A DNA stretch of 64,000 nt. Origin: an uncultured Alphaproteobacteria bacterium. Its GTDB lineage: Bacteria; Pseudomonadota; Alphaproteobacteria; RF32; CAG-239. Under the pieces are notes generated by a model that was not told the DNA's origin, ran no database searches, and was given only the letters and a program-made list of their open reading frames with translations. The stretch lies in the NCBI GenBank assembly GCA_910585375.1, contig CAJUCZ010000004.1:10636-74635 (forward strand), written 5' to 3'. Positions 3,485 through 54,929 of the stretch are shown here, one piece after another. How positions within the stretch are numbered: position 1 is the stretch's first letter; each line of letters begins with the position of its first letter. The position numbers and the translations under genes were made by a program.

Positions 3485-3793
3485 AGTACGGAAAGAATAC
3501 TCGGTTTTATGCAGAATGCAAACCTGAATTTATAATAAAAAATTTTTGTTCTTGATCTCAAACAGATAACACAGAACAGAATGACACCGATTAAAGGAGT
3601 GAAAAATGGATTGATATAAAAATACGTTCTATTTTAGAAAAAGCTTTCAACGAAGACGGTTGTACTCTTTATAGTTGTTAACTTTTGCAAATATATATAG
3701 CGCCTCGTCTTCAAAAATGAGGTGTTCTTCTGCCTGCCAGAACCTTGTAATGAGCCGGCTTCCTCCGCTGCTTCAACTCCAATCTTAGCCAAT

Positions 3794-3826
3794 AAAAAAG
3801 CTGTTCTTTATGAACAGCTTTTTTTG
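3794..3826. terminator. bidirectional intrinsic terminator hairpin (AGCTGTTC-ttta-tGAACAGCT flanked by A6/T7)
   Basis: perfect 8-bp stem with flanking A-run and T-run, immediately downstream (on minus strand) of tRNA-Pro. Confidence 0.55.
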
Positions 3827-3881
3827 AAGCACTTTTTGTGTCTGCGATACCGGAATAAATTGACCGCTACCGCTGTGCGGT

Positions 3882-3958
3882 TGGTCGGGATGACTGGATT
3901 TGAACCAGCGGCCCCTTGCACCCCATGCAAATGCGCTACCAGGCTGCGCTACATCCCG
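3882..3958 (-). tRNA. tRNA-Pro (anticodon GGG)
   Basis: reverse complement folds as cloverleaf: acceptor CGGGATG/CATCCCG, D-stem GCGC/GCGC, anticodon stem TTTGC/GCAAG with loop AUGGGGU (anticodon GGG), T-arm GCTGG-TTCAAAT-CCAGT, discriminator A, CCA encoded. Confidence 0.85.
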
Positions 3959-4865: not shown

Positions 4866-5390
4866 ATGAATATACAAATAGAGTTGAAGGACGTAGTCGG
4901 CTTGCCGGAATTGTTATCAGAAGATGATAGTGGCAATGCTTATAAGAAAAGGGTTTTTTCCATCATTATTCGTGAACAGACTCTGTCTCTTGGCGAAAAT
5001 CATGTAAATAATGCCCTTAACATCGGCAACAGCTTTAATCCGATATTGGGAAACTGCCGTTTGAATAAAGAGCCGCTGATAAATTGGAAACATCTGATAA
5101 AATCTTTAATCTGCTGTGACTATCATAATCCGGTGATTAAAAAGAAGATTCAGAAAGTGCTTGGTCAAATGGAAGAGGTGGAAAGACTTAAGATACTGTT
5201 ATCCGGTCTCGGATATTTTACCTTTCGGGACTGGCGCCGCCGCACGGCATTACTGCGCAAAAAACGAAAAATATTGCGGCAGAAAGTAGATTTTAACGTT
5301 TTTGTTGCTATGGCCATTATGGTTTATGAACAGAAGAAACTGGGAACGGGAGTAGAGTTTTTACAGGAATTGTGCGTCTGTTATGCTTAA
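4866..5390 (+). CDS. hypothetical protein (174 aa)
   Basis: ORF only, AT-rich surroundings, no recognisable motifs. Confidence 0.3.
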   Translation: MNIQIELKDVVGLPELLSEDDSGNAYKKRVFSIIIREQTLSLGENHVNNALNIGNSFNPILGNCRLNKEPLINWKHLIKSLICCDYHNPVIKKKIQKVLGQMEEVERLKILLSGLGYFTFRDWRRRTALLRKKRKILRQKVDFNVFVAMAIMVYEQKKLGTGVEFLQELCVCYA

Positions 5391-5395
5391 AACAA

Positions 5396-5425
5396 AAACC
5401 CTGACAGAAAGGTCAGGGTTTTTGT
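5396..5425. terminator. bidirectional intrinsic terminator (CCCTGAC-agaaag-GTCAGGG + T5) between convergent genes
   Basis: 7-bp perfect stem, A-run upstream and T-run downstream. Confidence 0.6.
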
Positions 5426-5734
5426 TTAGTCATTAATCGCTTTTTGAATATTCTTACGCAGTGAAACCAAATTGTCATCTGCACAATGCTTTGCTACATA
5501 ATGCCCTTCGGGCGTTGCGGCTTCACGAAAATACTCAATGATAAACAATCTTGCGGAATACGTCAGCCCCAAAGAATTGTGTTTTCCGCTTTCTATCAGG
5601 CTCAATAAGTCATTTTTTGTAATTTTTTCAATATCACAAACTTCTTCCAAGGCTTCCCATTCTTTATGACACAAACGGATGCTTGTTCTTCTGTCGTTGA
5701 TCATTACAACTTTATTAATAAGTTTAGTCATCAT
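5426..5734 (-). CDS. ribbon-helix-helix (RHH_4-like) domain protein
   Basis: motif RRTSIRLCHKEWEALEEVCD...LSLIE...NSLGLTYSARLFIIEYF matches the alphaproteobacterial RHH family often misannotated as aryl-sulfate sulfotransferase. Confidence 0.5.
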   Translation of the reverse strand: MMTKLINKVVMINDRRTSIRLCHKEWEALEEVCDIEKITKNDLLSLIESGKHNSLGLTYSARLFIIEYFREAATPEGHYVAKHCADDNLVSLRKNIQKAIND

Positions 5735-6103
5735 CTCTTTCGTACCATCATCGTTTTTATTATAATACTTTCACAATACACAAATAAAAAGGAAAATACA
5801 ATTTAAAAAAGAAAAATATGGATAATAAAAAGCTTGGTTGCGCAAAATATAGTTGCTATCTTTAATCATATCTCTAATTCGTTGAATTTCAAAATTTTAT
5901 TTAAACAAATCTCAACTTTAAAACATATAAAGACACATATATAGTACTTATGCTTTTATAAAATTGCAATCATAAAATAGTATGTTTTTAAAAATTCAGA
6001 CATTCATACTGGTTTTTCAAGCAAAACAGGCATTGAAAATTTGGGGCAATTAATAATTTTTAAAAAGAAAACAGCCTGCAAAGAAACAGGCTGTTTATGA
6101 TTG

Positions 6104-16478: not shown

Positions 16479-17678
16479 TTAGTTGCAGGTTCCTTCATAT
16501 GATGACGTTTTACCGTCACAGGTTGTATTTTTATCACTGCAAGAGCCACAGTTTTCTGAAGTATACCCATACTTACCGGTTCCATTTTTCTCACAATCTT
16601 CTTTGGTAAGATAGATTGTTCCGTTAGAATAGCAGGCTGAGGTTGTGAATACATCATTTTCTTCTCCTGTAGAGGTGTTTCTGCAGCCTTTAGTTACCTT
16701 ATGGACCCAATGGTAACCGGAACCGCTTGGGGAACAAGAGCCGCCACCGGCTGCGCGGACATACCCGACCCACTTGTTGCCGGAACTCCCGCTCCCTGAA
16801 CTTCCGCTGCCACCAGATCCTGAACCTCCGCCTGAACCGCCGGAATTACCGGAAGACGGGGGCGGGGTATAACAAGACCCACAGCATTTTCTGGTACCGC
16901 CGCACCCGTCGGAACAAGAATAGCAGTTGCATCCGCTTTCATCACCATAAGGCGTACAGCATGATTGATAAGGATAATAGCATGTTTTCGTGCGGCATCC
17001 GTTCTTGGTCGACCCGCCGCAACCTCCGGGGTTAGAGGTTGAAGTTCCGGACGGGCAGTTAGGATTGCAGGTGTAATAGCAGGTATAACCGCAGCCGTCA
17101 GAGCCGTTTGCTCCGTAAGAAGAATAACTTAAAGACGTATTCGCCGGACAGCCGGAAGGCCTGCAGCAGGTACCGAAATTGTTATCATAAGAACAGCGGC
17201 CGGAGGCATGAAGTTTCTGACCGGACGGGCATGAGTTTGTATATCCGGTATCGCGACAAGCCCGTTGATTGTCTCTTTTACAACCTTTGTATAAAGTTGC
17301 GAAACTTGGGCAAGGCTGGTCAACATAGTTCGGGATAGAACATGAGGTCGTGTTATAACCGTTATCGGTACACCATTTAACCGGATCACATTTAAGGTAA
17401 TAATCGTCTTTCTTACACTTACCGACCTGTGCCTGATACTGCGGACATTTACCGGAAGCATAATAGGTGTAACCTTTCTTCTCACACCATTCAGTGTCAT
17501 TGTTGACATTCATGTTTACATCGCCGTGCAAGGTATCGGAATCCTGACAGTCAGGCAGGAAACAGACGCCACAATAAGCATTGGAAGGCGGGAGGAAGAC
17601 CGAGAAAGCAGCGGCCACAGCCAGGGCTGATACCGCAGAGTTTAGTTTCAGGTGTAGCATAGTGTTAATGTTTTTCAT
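16479..17678 (-). CDS. secreted cysteine/glycine/serine-rich protein (399 aa), paralog of 42285-43415
   Basis: signal peptide MKNINTMLHLKLNSAVSALAVAAAFS; ~14% Cys; GS-rich linker PPPSSGNSGGSGGGSGSGGSGSSGSGSSG; RBS GGGAGGAAGCCG-ATG; N-terminal 230 aa ~80% identical to paralog. Confidence 0.7.
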   Translation of the reverse strand: MKNINTMLHLKLNSAVSALAVAAAFSVFLPPSNAYCGVCFLPDCQDSDTLHGDVNMNVNNDTEWCEKKGYTYYASGKCPQYQAQVGKCKKDDYYLKCDPVKWCTDNGYNTTSCSIPNYVDQPCPSFATLYKGCKRDNQRACRDTGYTNSCPSGQKLHASGRCSYDNNFGTCCRPSGCPANTSLSYSSYGANGSDGCGYTCYYTCNPNCPSGTSTSNPGGCGGSTKNGCRTKTCYYPYQSCCTPYGDESGCNCYSCSDGCGGTRKCCGSCYTPPPSSGNSGGSGGGSGSGGSGSSGSGSSGNKWVGYVRAAGGGSCSPSGSGYHWVHKVTKGCRNTSTGEENDVFTTSACYSNGTIYLTKEDCEKNGTGKYGYTSENCGSCSDKNTTCDGKTSSYEGTCN

Positions 17679-42284: not shown

Positions 42285-43415
42285 CTAATAACATGTAAAC
42301 TCAGCACTTATACCGCCCCAAGAGCAACCAATAAATTCTGCGTTGTTGCAGCTTGATAATGCGCTGCTGCAATTGCTAAAGCCGATACCTGAAAATTTAA
42401 AAGCACAGTCATTATAGCGGCCACAGTAGGAACCAATATCATCACAACAACTCATATGGTAGCCTGGATTACTGGGAGAGCAGCCGTAACCGCCGCATTG
42501 CGGATCACAAGAATCAATAGAGCCGTCTTTGCAGCAGTCGCCATGACATGTAGAATGGACGGAGCACCAGTTGGAAGAGGACGAGTTGCAGCAAGAAGAA
42601 CACCTTTTGCAAGTCCCCCCGCAACCATCGGAAATCGTGTAAGAGCCGCAGGAACAAGAGCTTGTGGTATCGGAACAGCTTGGCGTACAACAAGCTTGAT
42701 AAGGATAATAACAAGTTTTATCCCCGCATCCATTTTTGGTCGAACCGCCACAACCTCCGGGGTTGGAAGTTGAAGTACCTGACGGGCAGTTAGGGTTGCA
42801 GGTGTAATAACAGGTATACTCGCAGCCATCGGTACCGTTCATGCCGTAGGATGAAGAAGTTAAAGACGTATAAGCCGGACAATCAGACGGCGTACAGCAG
42901 GTGCCGTAGGATGAATCGTAAGTACAACGACCGGAGTTCTTTTTAAGCTTCTGACCTGACGGACAGGTTTTGGTATATTTGAGTTCCTTACAAGCCCGTT
43001 GATTGTCTCTTTTACAACCTTTGTATAAAGTTGCGAAACTTGGGCAAGGCTGGTCAACATAGTTCGGGATAGAACAAGTTGTCGTGTTATAACCGTTTTG
43101 CTGACACCAGGTCTTTGCGTCACATTTGAGGTAATAGTCGTCAAAAGGGCATGTATCCGTCACAGCCTGGTACTGCGGACATTTACCGGAAGCGTAATAG
43201 GTAAAGCCTTCTTTTTCACATTTATCGGTATCAATGTTGGGATTAGGGTTAGGCCCCGGAAAAACGCCGTCTTCATCGCCGCAGTCCGGCAGGAAGCAGA
43301 CGCCACAATAAGCATTGGAAGGTGGGAGGAAGACCGAGAAAGCAGCGGCCACAGCCAAGACTGATACCGCAGAGTTTAGTTTCATGTGTAGCATATTTCT
43401 GTTAATGTTTTTCAT
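42285..43415 (-). CDS. secreted cysteine/glycine/serine-rich protein (376 aa), paralog of 16479-17678
   Basis: start set to ATG 43415 with RBS GGGAGGAAGCCG (not upstream ATG 43454); signal peptide; conserved N-terminal 230 aa, divergent C-terminal region. Confidence 0.7.
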   Translation of the reverse strand: MKNINRNMLHMKLNSAVSVLAVAAAFSVFLPPSNAYCGVCFLPDCGDEDGVFPGPNPNPNIDTDKCEKEGFTYYASGKCPQYQAVTDTCPFDDYYLKCDAKTWCQQNGYNTTTCSIPNYVDQPCPSFATLYKGCKRDNQRACKELKYTKTCPSGQKLKKNSGRCTYDSSYGTCCTPSDCPAYTSLTSSSYGMNGTDGCEYTCYYTCNPNCPSGTSTSNPGGCGGSTKNGCGDKTCYYPYQACCTPSCSDTTSSCSCGSYTISDGCGGTCKRCSSCCNSSSSNWCSVHSTCHGDCCKDGSIDSCDPQCGGYGCSPSNPGYHMSCCDDIGSYCGRYNDCAFKFSGIGFSNCSSALSSCNNAEFIGCSWGGISAEFTCY

Positions 43416-43557
43416 CGGCTTCCTCCCATAATAAAAATTCTTTTCAAAGCACATACTTTGTCATAATTAACTGCTGAAGCAACGCAGGTTCTAAGACACT
43501 GTATAAACCGATCGCTGCCGACGTTCGGCCACCTGTCGTGCAGGTGACAATGAAGAT

Positions 43558-48593: not shown

Positions 48594-49859
48594 ATGTTGT
48601 CAAAACTGAAAAAAAATATTGCCGTTTTTTTCAAAAGGTTCGCCGTATCGGCGGCCCTTGCTTTGTTTTGCCTGCCGTTTTTTTGCAGAGGGGAAGCTTC
48701 GGCAGCAACAATTCAGTCTTTGCGTATCGGGCAGAATGCCGGAGGAATCCGCATTGTTTTTGATACTGATGCCAAAATAGGTTACAATGCCTTTTTGCTG
48801 AGCGGTCCGCGCCGTTTGGTAATTGATTTTGATAACGTCACGCTTAATGCCAAAGTCGAGAAAAGTCTGACAAGCAATAACGTGCTGGAAAATCCCCGTA
48901 TCGGACGCAATGTCGATACCGGCGCCGCCCGTCTGGCTTTTGACCTCAAACAGCCTGCCGTTATCAAAAAAGCTTTTATGCTTCCGCCGCAAATTAACTT
49001 TGGCTGGCGTTTTGTGGTCGATTTGGAAATCACGGCCGAAAGCGACTTCTCGAAACACGTCGGAGCGGCCTATGCCGTGTCGGATGACGGCGGTTCTTCT
49101 TCGCAGAGCGTTAAAAATGCCAAAAGCGCCAAGCCTTCTGCAGCCGTGGAAAAAAGAAGCAAAGCCAAAAAAATCATTGTGCTGGATCCCGGACACGGCG
49201 GACAAGATCCCGGAGCAATCGGCGTTTCCGGCGTTTATGAAAAAAATATCACGTTGTCGGCAGCCCGGGAACTGAAAAAAATCCTTGATGCAAAAGGTGA
49301 GTATAAGGTTTATATGACCCGCAACCGCGATGTCTTTATTCCTCTGCGAGAAAGGGTTAAAATTGCCCGCAAATACAAGGCCGATTTATTCTTGTCCATT
49401 CATGCCGACAGCGCTTTAAACCGCAATGCCAAAGGTCTGTCCGTTTATACTTTGTCAGAAAAAGCGTCAGACAAAGAAGCCGCTGCATTGGCGGAACGTG
49501 AAAATAAAGCCGATGTTATTGCCGGCCTGAATTTTGCCGAACATTCCAAAGAAGTGTCGGATATTTTGATTAATCTTGCCCAGCGCGAAACCTTAAACCG
49601 TTCATCGGAATTTGCAACCTTTATGGTTTCGGAAATGCGCAAAAGCTGCAAACTTTTGGACAATACGCACCGCTTTGCCGGCTTTGCCGTTCTGAAAGCG
49701 CCGGACATTCCTTCCGTTCTGCTGGAAATGGGATACTTGTCTAACCGCTCGGAAGAAAAACTTCTGCGCCAGTTGTCCTACCGCCAGAAACTGGCCAAAT
49801 CCGCCGCCGCCGCCATTGATAAATATTTTGACAATATGCACCACGCCTCATTGTTTTAA
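48594..49859 (+). CDS. amiC: N-acetylmuramoyl-L-alanine amidase AmiC (AMIN + Amidase_3 domains)
   Basis: signal peptide; AMIN domain; catalytic domain VLDPGHGGQDPGA…LSIHADS. Confidence 0.85.
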   Translation: MLSKLKKNIAVFFKRFAVSAALALFCLPFFCRGEASAATIQSLRIGQNAGGIRIVFDTDAKIGYNAFLLSGPRRLVIDFDNVTLNAKVEKSLTSNNVLENPRIGRNVDTGAARLAFDLKQPAVIKKAFMLPPQINFGWRFVVDLEITAESDFSKHVGAAYAVSDDGGSSSQSVKNAKSAKPSAAVEKRSKAKKIIVLDPGHGGQDPGAIGVSGVYEKNITLSAARELKKILDAKGEYKVYMTRNRDVFIPLRERVKIARKYKADLFLSIHADSALNRNAKGLSVYTLSEKASDKEAAALAERENKADVIAGLNFAEHSKEVSDILINLAQRETLNRSSEFATFMVSEMRKSCKLLDNTHRFAGFAVLKAPDIPSVLLEMGYLSNRSEEKLLRQLSYRQKLAKSAAAAIDKYFDNMHHASLF

Positions 49860-49891
49860 GGCAATTCCGGCAGTTGAAAGTTTAATTCTTT

Positions 49892-50273
49892 CTATTCGCA
49901 CAAATAATAAATAGAATTATAAATGCTATAAGTATCGCAGTAGCCACTTTTATAAACAGGTTTGCCTCCGATTGCTTTGCAGCTGGCTTTCATATCACTG
50001 CAATCAGGTTTTTCTTTATTATCGGAAATGCAATCAGAATAGCGATCACAGTATGTAAACTTGTCATCACAACAGAAGCCGCGTAGTACGACAGTCAGGC
50101 AATTTCCGTTTTTACAAATTTGCCCGCTTGAACACTTAGAACTTCCGCAGCTTTCGTAATTAGTTGTCCCGTTTCTTCCGCATGATGCGCCTGCGGTATA
50201 TTGGCATTCTCTGGCACAGTCGGCCCCCGACTGCGCCTGCTGCGCAGGTGTCAGCGTTAAGCTTTACTGACAT
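49892..50273 (-). pseudogene. small Cys-rich protein gene interrupted by frameshift at C5/G5 homopolymer (50224-50228)
   Basis: ATG 50273 frame encodes MSVKLNADTCAAGAVGG…, and removing one C from the C5 run restores a continuous ~126-aa Cys-rich ORF ending at 49892 (…ECQYTAGASCGRNGTTNYESCGSSKCSSGQICKNGNCL…YYLCE). Confidence 0.5.
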
Positions 50274-50499
50274 TAATCTTATTATAAAGTCATGTATATA
50301 TAAACCATGTTTGAGAAGGGGTGTGATTTTCGGGAAAAGTTCGTGCAGAACGGTCGGAAAAAGAATTTTTATCAGCAAAGGTTTGCCGGAACAAAGGGGG
50401 AAAAATAAAAAATTTCTTTGCAATTTTCTTAAATTGTAATAGATTAAGCACGAGATTTTGAACAATAAGATTAAAAAGCCCTAAAACCACGGATTTGAA

Positions 50500-52962
50500 A
50501 TGTTAAAAACGCTGTCTTCTTTATTAAGCACTTTTTTCTTTTTTGCAGTTATTGTGTTTGTTGTTGTAATCAGCACAATTTGGGATTATGCCGGAAAACT
50601 TCCTGATTATCGTCAGTTGGCCAAATACGAACCGGCCGTTACGACCCGCCTGTATGCCGGCGATGGCCGCTTGTTGATGGAATATGCAACGGAAAAGCGT
50701 TTTTTTGTACCGGTAGATAAAATTCCTGAAAAAGTAAAGAATGCGTTTATTGCGGCTGAAGACAAAAAGTTTTATTCCCATTCCGGTATTGATTATGTCG
50801 GAATTGTGCGCGCGGTCTTGAGCAATATTAAAAAAATCGGTACCGGCGCCCGTCCCGGCGGCGCTTCGACAATTACCCAGCAGGTAGCTAAAAATTTCTT
50901 GTTGTCGTCCGAATTGTCTTACAGCCGCAAAATCAAAGAAGCCATTTTGGCAACGCGGATTGAACAGGCTTTTTCCAAAGATCATATTTTGGAACTTTAT
51001 CTGAATGAAATTTATCTCGGTAACCGCTCCTATGGGGTCGGTGCCGCTGCATTGAATTATTTTGGCAAATCTTTGGACGAGTTGACTTTGGAAGAAGCCG
51101 CTTATCTGGCGGCTTTGCCTAAAGGACCGAACAATTATAATCCCAAAACCAAAAACGCTGCTGCCGTCGCCCGCCGCAACTGGGTGATTGACCGCATGGT
51201 CGAAGACGGCTATGTCAGTGAGGAAGAAGCGCTTGCAGCCAAGGAAAAACCGTTGGTTACCATACAGCGGAATAATGAGTTTGTCAAAGATTCACAATAT
51301 TTTAGTGAAGAAGTCCGCCGCCGCATAACCGACAAATTCGGAGATGATGCCTTGTATGAAGGCGGATTGCTGGTTCGGACGACTGTTGATCCTAAATTGC
51401 AGGAAATTGCCACAAAAGTCTTTAGAAAAGGTTTGCAGGATTATGACGATCGTCACGGTTGGCGCGGGGCTGTGGCCAATATTAGTTTGGATGGCGATTA
51501 TAAAGAAACTCTTGCTAAAATTGAAATGCCGAAAGGCGCGGACAAAAACTGGCAGAAAGCCGTCGTACTCGAAACATCCAAAGACAAAGCCGTTATTGAA
51601 ACAAGTGCCGGAGAACGCGGCTCAATTCCTCTGGCCTTTATGCCTTCTGCCGGCAAGACGCTGAAAAATCAAGGGATTACCGGTCCGTTGGGCAGTGTTG
51701 CCAAATATTTGGAAAAAGGCGATGTGATATATGTGGAGAAAGCGGCTGAAAAGGAAATTGCCGCCAAAAAATTGACGGCGGACAGTTATCATTTGCGTCA
51801 GGTGCCGGATGTTCAGGGCGCTTTGATTGTACTTGACCCGCATACCGGCAAAGTGTTGGCTGCTGTCGGCGGATATGATTTTTCCCAGTCGCAGTTTAAC
51901 CGCGCGACGCAGGCCAAACGCCAGACCGGCTCTTCTTTCAAGCCTTTTGTTTATATTACGGCTTTGGATAACGGCTATTCTCCCACGGATTTAATTTTGG
52001 ATGCGCCGTTTGTGTTGGATCAGGGCGAGGGGTTGCCGAAATGGAAACCCAAAAACTATTCGGTTAATTTTTACGGCCCGACAACATTACGTCAGGGAAT
52101 TGAAAAATCGCGCAATTTGATGACTGTCCGTCTGGCGCAGGACTTGGGCATGGATAAAGTTTCGGATTATGTCCGCCGCTTCGGGATTAACGATAATCTG
52201 CCAAAACTGCTTTCCATGTCTCTGGGGGCTTCAGACACGCGTTTGATTAATATGGCGGCGGGCTATGCCATGATTGTAAACGGCGGCAAAAAAATTGAGC
52301 CTTATTTTATTGAGCAGGTGCAGGATCGCAACGGCAAAACCATTTTGAAACATGACAAACGCGAATGTGCCGGCTGCAATGTAAACTTTTATGAAAGTCA
52401 GGAAACGCCGAAACTGATTGATAATCGGGAACAAATTGTTGATCCGCTCAGCGCTTATCAGATGACCAGTATTCTTGAAGGCGTGGCAATCAGGGGAACA
52501 GCCTCCCGTCTGCGTAATTTAAACAAACATCTGGCGGGCAAAACCGGAACCACCAATGATAATAAAGATTCCTGGTTCATTGGCTTTTCTCCGGATTTGG
52601 TCGTGGGCGTTTATCTTGGCTTTGACGAACCGAGAACGTTGGGCAGACGGGAGACCGGCGCAACCGCAGCGCTGCCGGTTTTTTATGATTTTATGCAGCA
52701 GGCCCTGAAAAACCAGCCGGATATTCCTTTCCGGATTCCAAACGGCATTAAGCTTGTGCGGGTTAACCATACGACCGGAAAACCGGCAACCCCGATGGAT
52801 AAGTCCGTTATTGTCGAGGCTTTGAAACCGGACTTTGATTTTGACAAACAGGCACAAAGGGTAATTGGCGGAGAAACGGTGGCCGCAGACGGTAAAGAAG
52901 CGCCGTCTTCCGGTTATTCCGCAGAAGAGGGCGGAGATTTTCAGCTTGGCGGACAATATTAA
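50500..52962 (+). CDS. mrcA: penicillin-binding protein 1A (bifunctional transglycosylase/transpeptidase)
   Basis: GT51 motifs (EDKKFYSHSGID, GASTITQQ), TP motifs SxxK (SSFK), SxN, KTGT. Confidence 0.95.
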   Translation: MLKTLSSLLSTFFFFAVIVFVVVISTIWDYAGKLPDYRQLAKYEPAVTTRLYAGDGRLLMEYATEKRFFVPVDKIPEKVKNAFIAAEDKKFYSHSGIDYVGIVRAVLSNIKKIGTGARPGGASTITQQVAKNFLLSSELSYSRKIKEAILATRIEQAFSKDHILELYLNEIYLGNRSYGVGAAALNYFGKSLDELTLEEAAYLAALPKGPNNYNPKTKNAAAVARRNWVIDRMVEDGYVSEEEALAAKEKPLVTIQRNNEFVKDSQYFSEEVRRRITDKFGDDALYEGGLLVRTTVDPKLQEIATKVFRKGLQDYDDRHGWRGAVANISLDGDYKETLAKIEMPKGADKNWQKAVVLETSKDKAVIETSAGERGSIPLAFMPSAGKTLKNQGITGPLGSVAKYLEKGDVIYVEKAAEKEIAAKKLTADSYHLRQVPDVQGALIVLDPHTGKVLAAVGGYDFSQSQFNRATQAKRQTGSSFKPFVYITALDNGYSPTDLILDAPFVLDQGEGLPKWKPKNYSVNFYGPTTLRQGIEKSRNLMTVRLAQDLGMDKVSDYVRRFGINDNLPKLLSMSLGASDTRLINMAAGYAMIVNGGKKIEPYFIEQVQDRNGKTILKHDKRECAGCNVNFYESQETPKLIDNREQIVDPLSAYQMTSILEGVAIRGTASRLRNLNKHLAGKTGTTNDNKDSWFIGFSPDLVVGVYLGFDEPRTLGRRETGATAALPVFYDFMQQALKNQPDIPFRIPNGIKLVRVNHTTGKPATPMDKSVIVEALKPDFDFDKQAQRVIGGETVAADGKEAPSSGYSAEEGGDFQLGGQY

Positions 52963-52976
52963 GGAGTATAAAAGAG

Positions 52977-54072
52977 ATGAGAGCAGAAATTGCGGAAGTT
53001 GTTGAAGAAATCAGGCAGTCGCTGGAACTGCTGAGGAGGTCTCTTTGACTATGATAATGCTGTATTGCGCCTGAGCGAACTCAATGCGTTGAGCGAAGAT
53101 GCCAATCTTTGGAACGATGCTGAAAAAGCCAAAAAACTGATGAGCGAAAAAACGCGTCTGGAAGACAATCTCGGCCATTATGATGCAATGTTCAAGGCTC
53201 TGAATGATACGGTTGAACTTGCAGAAATGGCAGAAACAGAGGATGACGAAACCGTTATTGCCGAAGCTTATCAGGAACTTTTGTCCTTAAAAGAGGAGGC
53301 CAAACGCGGTGAACTGGAAGCCTTGCTCTCGGGAGAAGTCGATGCCAACGACGCCTTTTTGGAAGTTCATGCCGGCAGCGGCGGCACCGAGGCGCAGGAC
53401 TGGGCGGAAATGCTGGCGCGTATGTACAGCCGCTGGGCGGAAAACCGCAAATTTAAAACCGAATATATAGAAGAAACCGAAGGCGATGTCGCCGGCATTA
53501 AATCCGTAACCCTGAAAATTTCCGGACATAATGCCTATGGCTGGTTGAAGTCGGAAACCGGAGTACATCGTCTGGTGCGGATTTCACCTTTCGACAGTGC
53601 GGCGCGCCGCCATACCAGTTTTGCCTCGGTCGGAGTCTATCCGGTACTGGATGATGATATTGAAATTGAGATTAATGAATCCGACTGCCGGGTTGATACC
53701 TATCGCGCCAGCGGTGCCGGCGGCCAGCATATTAACAAAACCGATTCTGCGGTTCGTATAACGCACATTCCGACCGGAATAGTCGTACAGTGCCAAAACC
53801 AGCGCTCTCAGTTTCAAAACCGTGACGCTGCGTGGAAAATGCTCAAAGCCCGCCTGTACGAGCTGGAACTCAAAAGACGCGAAGAAGCCGAGCAGGCAAT
53901 GCGAGATAATCAAAGCGACATCGGCTGGGGGCATCAGATCCGTTCTTATGTTTTGCAGCCTTATAAAATGGTCAAAGATTTGCGGACGGAAGCTGAAACT
54001 TCTGATACCAAGGCCGTTCTAGACGGTAATATTGATATGTTCTTAAGTGCGGCGCTCGCACATAAATTATAG
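52977..54072 (+). CDS. prfB: peptide chain release factor 2, with programmed +1 frameshift at CTT-TGA-C (53043-53049)
   Basis: frame-0 ORF of 23 codons ([23 protein letters not shown]) ends at in-frame TGA preceded by SD-like AGGAGG; +1 frame continues [13 protein letters not shown]… through GGQ motif ([10 protein letters not shown]) and SPF motif. Confidence 0.9.
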
Positions 54073-54083
54073 ATGAGGCAAAA

Positions 54084-54929
54084 ATGAAAAAAAGTGGAAA
54101 ATGGTTAAAAAGGGCCGTTGTTGCCGGTGTTGTAATTTATGCTTTATTTTGTGCTGCTGTTTATTTTTATCCGCAATACTTTTTTTACAATCCAACGCAT
54201 GTGCCTTCAAATCTGGACAATGCCCGTGCAAAAGGTTTTATGGCCGAGCGTGTTGATTATGTTTCCGAAGACGGCACGCCGCTGTTCGGCTGGTATATTC
54301 CTCCGCGTCAGAACAATATGCCGTTGGTTGTATTTATGCATGGAAATTCTTATAATATTGAAACCTTTTATAATAAAATGCAGCCGCTGGCAGAAGCCGG
54401 ATATGGCGTTTTTATGCCGGAATATCGAGGATTTGGCGGCATAGAGGGCAAAATTACGCAGGCCAATCTGGAGGCAGACGCCATCGCTGCGGTCAGAAAA
54501 CTGCAACAAATGGGGTATGATAATTCCCGTATGGTGATCTATGGCATGTCTTTGGGATCTCATATGGCAACCAACAGCGTTTATAAACTGCAGAATGACG
54601 GAAACTTTGCCGGCCTGATTTTGGAAGTGCCGTTTGATAATATTGAAAACGTTGTCCGGCTGGTTGTGCCTGTTCCGCTGCCGCTGCAATACATTGTTCA
54701 AGACAAATATCACAATGAAGAAATGCTTTCCGGTGTAAATGCGCCTCTTTTGCTGATGGGCGGCACACATGACCGCACGGTTCCCGTTGAATTGGCAAAA
54801 AAATTATATACATTTGCTAAAGAACCCAAAAATATGATTATATATCAGGAAGGAACACACAGCGGCCTGTACGATATGCAAAATTATAAAGATGTTCTTT
54901 CATGGTTGGAAAACTTAAGAAGAAAGTAA
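54084..54929 (+). CDS. alpha/beta hydrolase
   Basis: N-terminal TM; nucleophile elbow GMSLGSH; …HGTHD…. Confidence 0.7.
   Translation: MKKSGKWLKRAVVAGVVIYALFCAAVYFYPQYFFYNPTHVPSNLDNARAKGFMAERVDYVSEDGTPLFGWYIPPRQNNMPLVVFMHGNSYNIETFYNKMQPLAEAGYGVFMPEYRGFGGIEGKITQANLEADAIAAVRKLQQMGYDNSRMVIYGMSLGSHMATNSVYKLQNDGNFAGLILEVPFDNIENVVRLVVPVPLPLQYIVQDKYHNEEMLSGVNAPLLLMGGTHDRTVPVELAKKLYTFAKEPKNMIIYQEGTHSGLYDMQNYKDVLSWLENLRRK

Follow-up and report, generated by a model that had tools for sequence, protein, structure and literature searches.

A frameshifted cysteine-rich reading frame between amiC and mrcA in a gut alphaproteobacterium, a probable remnant of a secreted modular protein gene

Does a short homopolymer between amiC and mrcA of an uncultured gut alphaproteobacterial lineage switch a small cysteine-rich gene on and off, or does it mark a gene that has decayed? 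The question was raised by a sequence-only reading of the 64,000-nucleotide (64 kb) stretch of DNA analysed here, hereafter the window, which described a small split gene as possibly phase-variable or recently inactivated. Every coordinate in that reading was checked and all were correct (Table 1), including the placement of the locus between amiC (48594–49859) and mrcA (50500–52962), with rne and prfB farther out. The frame opened by the minus-strand ATG translates as MSVKLNADTCAAGAVGGRLCQRMPIYRRRIMRKKRDN and ends where the earlier reading placed its stop. The +1 frame continues as had been described, open for 123 codons (50263 to 49895, minus strand) and encoding 15 Cys before its stop, with its sole ATG, GTG or TTG codon late, at 49993, and no usable start earlier. 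The run of five C on the plus strand, G5 on the coding strand, is present as claimed, and dropping one of its bases joins the two frames seamlessly into an ORF of 126 codons, an arrangement seen directly in natural contigs with four G (G4). The G4 frame is the ancestral one, as the C-x8-C-x3-C spacing described below is kept in that frame only, and relative to the G4 alleles codons 1–16 alone of the 37-codon fragment are in the ancestral frame, the remainder after the tract being out-of-frame read-through.

Table 1. Features of the split reading frame and its surroundings, in window coordinates.
Feature	Position	Strand	Basis
5′ fragment of the split ORF	50160–50273	−	ATG 50273 to TAA 50162–50160, 37 codons
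Frameshift site: C5 (plus strand) / G5 (coding strand), single-G insertion relative to G4 alleles	50224–50228	−	Allele comparison
Module B, 49 aa, 8 Cys, split between Cys 1 and Cys 2 by the frameshift	50099–50246	−	Family alignment
Module C, short CCDD...YC...PDCSDMxxSCxAxGG...C type, then TAG 49894–49892	49892–50074	−	Family alignment
Stretch upstream of the ATG, without recognisable promoter, ribosome-binding site, signal peptide or module A	50274–50389	−	Alignments
Imperfect palindrome, 11-nt arms, 3-nt loop, G tract at apex	50213–50237		DNA fold
Block directly upstream of mrcA, ~90% conserved, not part of the small gene	50390–50499		Cross-species alignment

At the base composition of the window, the chance of a 123-codon open stretch is ~1e-3 per start position, and we estimate that roughly 0.02 such stretches are expected over the six frames of the 640-nt spacer. 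This question is moot because homology settles the coding nature of the +1 frame, which matches family proteins at E = 2e-42 to 1e-10 and is hit by the profile at E values down to 2.5e-54. Judged by sequence, the small ORF is a member of an unannotated family of secreted, modular, Cys-rich proteins found in gut Alphaproteobacteria and comprising more than 100 clusters (P0003–P0115). A HMMER scan of 1.84 billion representatives recovered 18 relatives of the small ORF and a profile search recovered 101 clusters, of which the few named ones are all “hypothetical protein” from Alphaproteobacteria MAGs. Complete members start with a signal peptide that ends in A-x-A just ahead of “AC”, go on to module A (CxPxxDCxxLGYKY..CPFDxxKYFC), carry zero to five 8-Cys B modules and close with module C at the C-terminus (GxCC...PDCxDMxxSCxAxGG...C); module A is replaced in some members by a large, ~270-aa N-domain. 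The 49-aa module B has the consensus CxYxxTxxxCxxxC..G..SCx[KR]NGTTYYxSCGSSKCxSGQxCxNGxC and the Cys spacing C-x8-C-x3-C-x7-C-x10-C-x4-C-x5-C-x4-C, with 29 instances in P0001–P0019 and the window ORF. All fetched members with a complete N-terminus (146–260 aa) begin with a signal peptide, followed in nearly all of them by module A, most of which is lost in P0080.

The window ORF comprises one B and one short-type C. It aligns to the B and C portion of its relatives alone, at 33–48% identity with all Cys conserved (E = 2e-42 to P0003, the invariant Cys aligning), and starts with MSVKLNADTC, having neither an N-terminal signal peptide nor module A or the large N-domain. Scans of the ORF, the family members and two large paralogs in the window against Pfam and NCBIfam gave no matches, an AlphaFold2 model of the 126-aa product (pLDDT 77) had no significant neighbour in the PDB, and no paper on cysteine-rich proteins of RF32 Alphaproteobacteria turned up in a literature search.

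Several copies of the family occur per genome, and the two large paralogs of the window are among them. These paralogous secreted proteins have 399 aa (43 Cys) and 389 aa (50 Cys), and are encoded on the minus strand at 16479–17678 and 42285–43454. Identity is 74% across their first ~270 aa, their C-termini are unrelated, and the two genes have the ribosome-binding context GGGAGGAAGCCG-ATG in common. The layout of conserved N-terminus and variable C-terminus resembles that of polymorphic toxins, although the paralogs match no known family. The small product had been likened to these proteins in “compositional flavour”, and the likeness goes deeper than composition, as the motif CCDDxxxYCxRYxDC is common to the small ORF and the C-terminus of the 389-aa protein. 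In P0004, P0005 and P0008 the N-domain of the large proteins is joined to the same B and C modules; these fusions, together with the module-C-like C-terminus of the 389-aa protein, indicate that the resemblance reflects homology. A C6 run (42615–42620) and a G5 run (16858–16862) lie inside the two large genes, with their frames undisturbed.

Tract lengths were taken from the assembled contigs of 14 independent samples (10 with G5, 4 with G4). A search with the G4-repaired 126-aa product returned one cluster with two members, P0001 and P0002 (98–99% identical), both intact at 126 aa and encoded on L001 (ERZ26179339), L002 (SRR33454323) and L003 (ERR10422994), and a further contig, L085 (GCA_947854535.1), carries the same allele as P0002, with G4. 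All four align base for base with the window spacer, differing in a few SNPs and in a tract shorter by exactly one G, and L001–L003 translate to the 126-aa ORF. The comparison of orthologous loci that the sequence-only reading had proposed therefore yields intact 126-codon G4 alleles in other strains, from four independent assemblies which represent three other haplotypes of the same species and diverge by 0.25–0.5% from the window.

Beyond the window, G5 was found in 10 other samples processed with several assemblers (ERZ778499, ERR3199556, ERR3199550, ERR3199638, SRR29547557, SRR29547540, DRR732360, SRR26745748, SRR34729399 and GCA_948974275.1). These contigs (L084/L099, L086/L091/L097/L103, L087, L088, L089, L098, L100, L101, L102 and L104) were recovered by exact look-ups of the window AmiC, MrcA and a spurious 33-aa spacer ORF, and nearly all are 100% identical to the window over 2–7 kb. 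Each contig that reaches the tract and matches the window spacer has G5. As ten other samples carry it, G5 is no assembly error. Among the assemblies found, the frameshifted G5 allele is commoner than G4, at a ratio of 10:4. Contigs were retrieved through exact matches to window proteins or to the 126-aa product, a biased sampling, and the ratio is therefore no population frequency. JGI metagenomes scanned for the exact pattern, whatever the tract length, gave 0 matches.

Variable sites in the spacer define three haplotypes, the window type having G5 and the other two types G4. Tract length is perfectly linked to spacer haplotype in the 14 samples, with no homoplasy: the private window alleles at 50325 and 49879 (G and A on the plus strand) are on every G5 copy, and the alternatives are on every G4 copy. 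One G5 contig, L101 (SRR26745748; window 49000–54462), is identical to the window over 49809–54462, window-type spacer and tract included, and its 9 SNPs (8 synonymous) form a cluster in amiC, at 49088–49808. This pattern identifies L101 as a between-strain recombination mosaic in amiC, in which the linkage of tract and haplotype is kept. The G4/G5 site is a clean lineage marker for this gut alphaproteobacterium. Of the two possibilities originally put forward, recent inactivation is the one that the alleles bear out, G5 being derived and confined to one spacer haplotype while the other three haplotypes, 0.25–0.5% divergent, have G4. Stable inheritance of G5 and its wide occurrence, as seen in the linkage across 14 samples, point to a pseudogenising mutation that has become fixed and does not switch back and forth.

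The module content of the same locus differs between species, being none, signal peptide with A and C, signal peptide with A, B and C, or B and C only. L004 (AmiC 90% identical) has an amiC–mrcA spacer of 258 bp with no gene, and L005 (AmiC 89% identical) has a gene with signal peptide, A and C in the spacer. In L096 the mrcA–amiC interval holds P0086 (180 aa; signal peptide, A, B and C), identically placed and oriented and equipped with a TTGACT-N17-TATAGT promoter and the ribosome-binding site GGGAGAGG of its own. More generally, complete family members have upstream a promoter (TTGACT-N17-TATAAT or TATAGT), the ribosome-binding site GGGAGAG, a signal peptide and module A.

In alignments with L096 and L005, their promoter block, ribosome-binding site, signal peptide and module A are absent from window 50274–50389. 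This stretch has no promoter-like site, and upstream of the window ORF nothing in any frame resembles the signal peptide or module A. Local DNA alignment of 50274–50389 to the 5′ parts of family genes gave E values of at least 0.3, and for this reason we do not claim the degraded ribosome-binding site, signal peptide or module A that MAFFT hinted at upstream of the ATG. No ribosome-binding site precedes the ATG, compared with a strong one at 18 of the 31 other gene starts checked, both large paralogs included. Sequence and hydropathy were the grounds on which the ORF was taken to lack a signal peptide; the N-terminal hydropathy peak of the window ORF is 1.2, against 1.7–2.6 in the signal peptides of the family. 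One detail counts against the view that the product is not exported, in that its N-terminus ends V-G-A before D, which fits the −3/−1 rule for signal peptidase cleavage. Residues 4–10 (KLNADTC) resemble an inter-module linker (KSNAPTC in P0003).

Adjacent to mrcA, ~110 nt are ~90% conserved across species with AmiC 89–90% identical, the gene-less L004 included (L004 5415–5523; L005 6430–6539; L096 2767–2876), and this block is a probable promoter or leader of mrcA. A 190-codon ORF starting from TTG 50465 in G4 strains was considered and rejected, as its extra stretch is this conserved block, which is also present in gene-less L004; in addition, 3 of 3 substitutions in the minus-strand ORF overlapping the block change the amino acid, which was counted against it. 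Reading MSVKLNADTCAAGAVGA as a double-glycine bacteriocin leader was likewise discarded since the consensus positions do not fit, and an Rfam scan of 49500–50800 gave no significant match. In the amiC-proximal part of the spacer, L005 (about 5300–5800) and L096 (about 3560–3890) contain repeated, REP- or MITE-like CCCGGGGATGAC.../GGGGATGACAAA(T)AAGAAAAAGA elements, which are absent from the window.

We consider it probable that the spacer holds the 3′ remnant (one B and one C) of a secreted Cys-rich family gene, whose 5′ parts are gone and which was probably already non-functional as a secreted protein when a +1 G insertion was added and became fixed. Under this scenario this species would have lost everything from the promoter to module A, leaving a 126-codon ORF whose ATG is fortuitous and which has neither a ribosome-binding site nor a signal for export. 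As the window copy keeps only B and C, its product was probably not exported before the frameshift, which would then be a second hit. In the window lineage an extra G entered the G4 run at the apex of a small hairpin, likely through replication slippage, splitting the ORF into 37 codons and an out-of-frame tail, and the G5 allele, presumably neutral, is fixed in one widespread lineage.

The palindrome around the tract folds as DNA at −12.2 kcal/mol (z = −3.25), and the equivalent stretches in L096 and L095 show no folding. Before the tract, the residues AAGAVG replace the near-invariant xYTxTA of the family, with GAVG encoded by the left arm of the palindrome. A local templated rearrangement may have taken place here, and the hairpin may have favoured slippage.

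The locus combines several marks of a pseudogene. Intact homologues exist beside a disrupted frame (P0001 and P0002, and a family alignment that runs across the break), and the signals for expression and targeting seen in L096 and L005 have been lost, as far as sequence tells. It resembles frameshift pseudogenes that arise from short-homopolymer indels in that one inserted base breaks the frame, sister strains have intact alleles, expression signals are missing and nonsynonymous changes seem to be in excess (4 variant sites here). It differs from them in belonging to an unannotated family, in being a copy already truncated at its 5′ end, and in having a frameshifted allele that is the commoner one among the assemblies found. 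The frameshift, on this comparison of sequences, is ordinary gene decay and not an on/off switch, and the locus should be annotated as a frameshifted remnant, neither as two small genes nor as a phase-variable gene.

Recent loss of a functional gene is the alternative that survives best, and we regard it as possible but rather unlikely. It holds that the 126-aa ORF works in G4 strains from ATG 50273, its product being exported or used unconventionally, and that G5 is the sole inactivating hit. The G4 ORF could still be functional, or only recently orphaned, because it retains 15 of its 15 Cys and most of the conserved residues, and three haplotypes have an uninterrupted frame, which gene callers predict. 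P0080 further shows that a version with signal peptide, B and C but without most of module A exists. The window ORF, however, is without the signal peptide seen in every fetched N-terminally complete member, it lacks a ribosome-binding site and the family promoter block, and at 126 aa it is the shortest non-fragment member of the family. Three near-invariant family residues are changed in it (Y12A, T15V and Y38N). Nor would the cytoplasm be a likely place for a 15-Cys protein to fold. The variant sites of the small ORF split into 3 nonsynonymous and 1 synonymous, compared with 3 and 19 in rne, amiC and mrcA (Fisher p = 0.028, with 4 sites in the ORF), which suggests relaxed constraint, albeit from these few sites and with all Cys kept.

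Family members are also found as single-gene inserts at unrelated chromosomal sites (L093/L094 3001–3759, L095 1011–1472 and L096 3001–3543), the sites being an aminoacyl-tRNA synthetase/bactofilin interval, a position beside mgtE, and the mrcA/amiC interval. The gene-caller N-terminal extensions of P0039, P0042 and P0054 resemble the upstream stretch of L005, which suggests that the gene moves with its own promoter. The differing module content at the same locus suggests proteins that evolve quickly and face the host or competitors, in an uncultured gut lineage that has been little studied, and this unannotated modular family and its turnover at the amiC–mrcA spacer are of more interest than the frameshift itself. 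A bolder reading, which we think improbable, is that the family may be an undescribed class of hypervariable, secreted, disulfide-rich modular proteins of gut Alphaproteobacteria whose B and C modules would be acquired, lost and reshuffled at sites of single-gene insertion such as the amiC–mrcA spacer, and that the B and C unit without a signal peptide is not dead DNA but a module reserve, slowly reversible (G4/G5) or competent for recombination.

Another reading, in which the fragment is an orphan 3′ cassette, was rejected as the main explanation and seems to us very improbable. Here the small ORF would be a silent store of modules without a signal peptide, recombining into the large paralogs to change their C-termini in the manner of orphan CdiA-CT/Rhs-CT modules. 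The large paralogs do combine a conserved ~270-aa N-domain with unrelated C-termini, relatives do join that N-domain to B and C modules, and the small ORF is exactly one B and C unit. What is missing is a recombination handle: upstream of the fragment there is no nucleotide homology to the large genes, and blastn and tblastx of the spacer against the window gave a single match, a 44-nt stretch at 73% in the CCDD motif. Recombination would also carry the frameshift along, and with a complete stand-alone gene as positional orthologue, truncation is the simpler account. The similarity to CdiA-CT/Rhs-CT orphan modules lies in a promoterless 3′ fragment without signal peptide, in a modular secreted family whose large paralogs are conserved at the N-terminus and variable at the C-terminus; the locus differs in having no conserved recombination junction, no adjacent immunity gene, no recognisable toxin domain, and a complete small gene as its positional orthologue.

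Phase variation, the other possibility raised for this locus at the outset, is not supported, and we judge it highly improbable that slipped-strand mispairing flips the tract between G4 (ON) and G5 (OFF) often enough to be of use. Some of the ingredients are in place: a homopolymer close to the 5′ end, a gene of a secreted-protein family, two tract lengths in natural strains, and a position of the tract in a hairpin loop, where slippage could be easier. Tract length does toggle the frame, G4 giving the 126-codon ORF and G5 37 codons and a stop. Frameshifts in homopolymer tracts can, moreover, be reversible (PMC2831843). The tract is nevertheless short: known poly-G/C phase-variable (contingency) tracts are mononucleotide runs of at least 7 nt according to the abstract of PMC4965091, against G5 here and G4 elsewhere. 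An interrupted run of four (A4) gave frameshifts at <3e-10, and an A6/A7 tract mutates ~1000 times faster than point mutation (PMC2831843). Within the window there are 21 G/C runs of at least 5 nt, the longest of 6 and fewer than base composition predicts, hence no long G/C tracts anywhere, and homopolymers of 5–6 nt are ordinary in this genome. Length variation independent of phylogeny was not seen among the assemblies of the 14 samples, in which tract length follows haplotype without exception. Little function may remain to switch, because this copy is without the signal peptide, promoter and ribosome-binding site of complete members. Taken together, the short tract, the haplotype linkage, the lack of long G/C runs and the published behaviour of homopolymers point to one fixed insertion.

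Two comparisons illustrate this. The poly-G/C contingency loci of Campylobacter, Neisseria and Haemophilus share with this locus a G/C homopolymer in the 5′ part, a secreted or surface protein family and toggling by one base; here the tract is 4 or 5 nt rather than at least 7, its length tracks phylogeny rather than clonal variation, and the window has no enrichment of long tracts. The 5′ poly(A) tract (A6/A7) of inlA in Listeria monocytogenes (PMC2831843) is similar in that a lineage-borne out-of-frame allele truncates a secreted-protein gene early. In inlA the frameshift arose at least twice and A6/A7 changes at ~1000 times the point-mutation rate, whereas here a single origin fits and the run is shorter.

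Least tenable, with practically no weight left and largely refuted already, are a sequencing or assembly artefact at the homopolymer, a site where indels are a common assembly error but where G5 is reproduced in 10 other samples with different assemblers, and programmed ribosomal +1 frameshifting across GGG-G, for which tRNA-Gly could re-pair +1 on G GGG G and a true programmed +1 site (prfB) lies ~2.8 kb away, but which is opposed by other strains being in frame with G4, hence no conserved recoding at a slippery site, and by the lack of an upstream ribosome-binding-like or stop-codon stimulator and of a slow A-site codon, unlike prfB. The gene prfB (RF2) resembles the small ORF in having two overlapping frames that need a +1 shift for the full product; it has a conserved AGGAGG-N-CTT-TGA-C signal in all strains, whereas nothing of the kind is present at the small ORF, whose relatives are plainly in frame. 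In the window, prfB (52977–53065, continuing to 54072) contains a canonical RF2 programmed +1 frameshift site (about 53028–53050), in which the frame opened by ATG 52977 leads to AGGAGG TCT CTT TGA C and the main ORF runs onward in the +1 frame.
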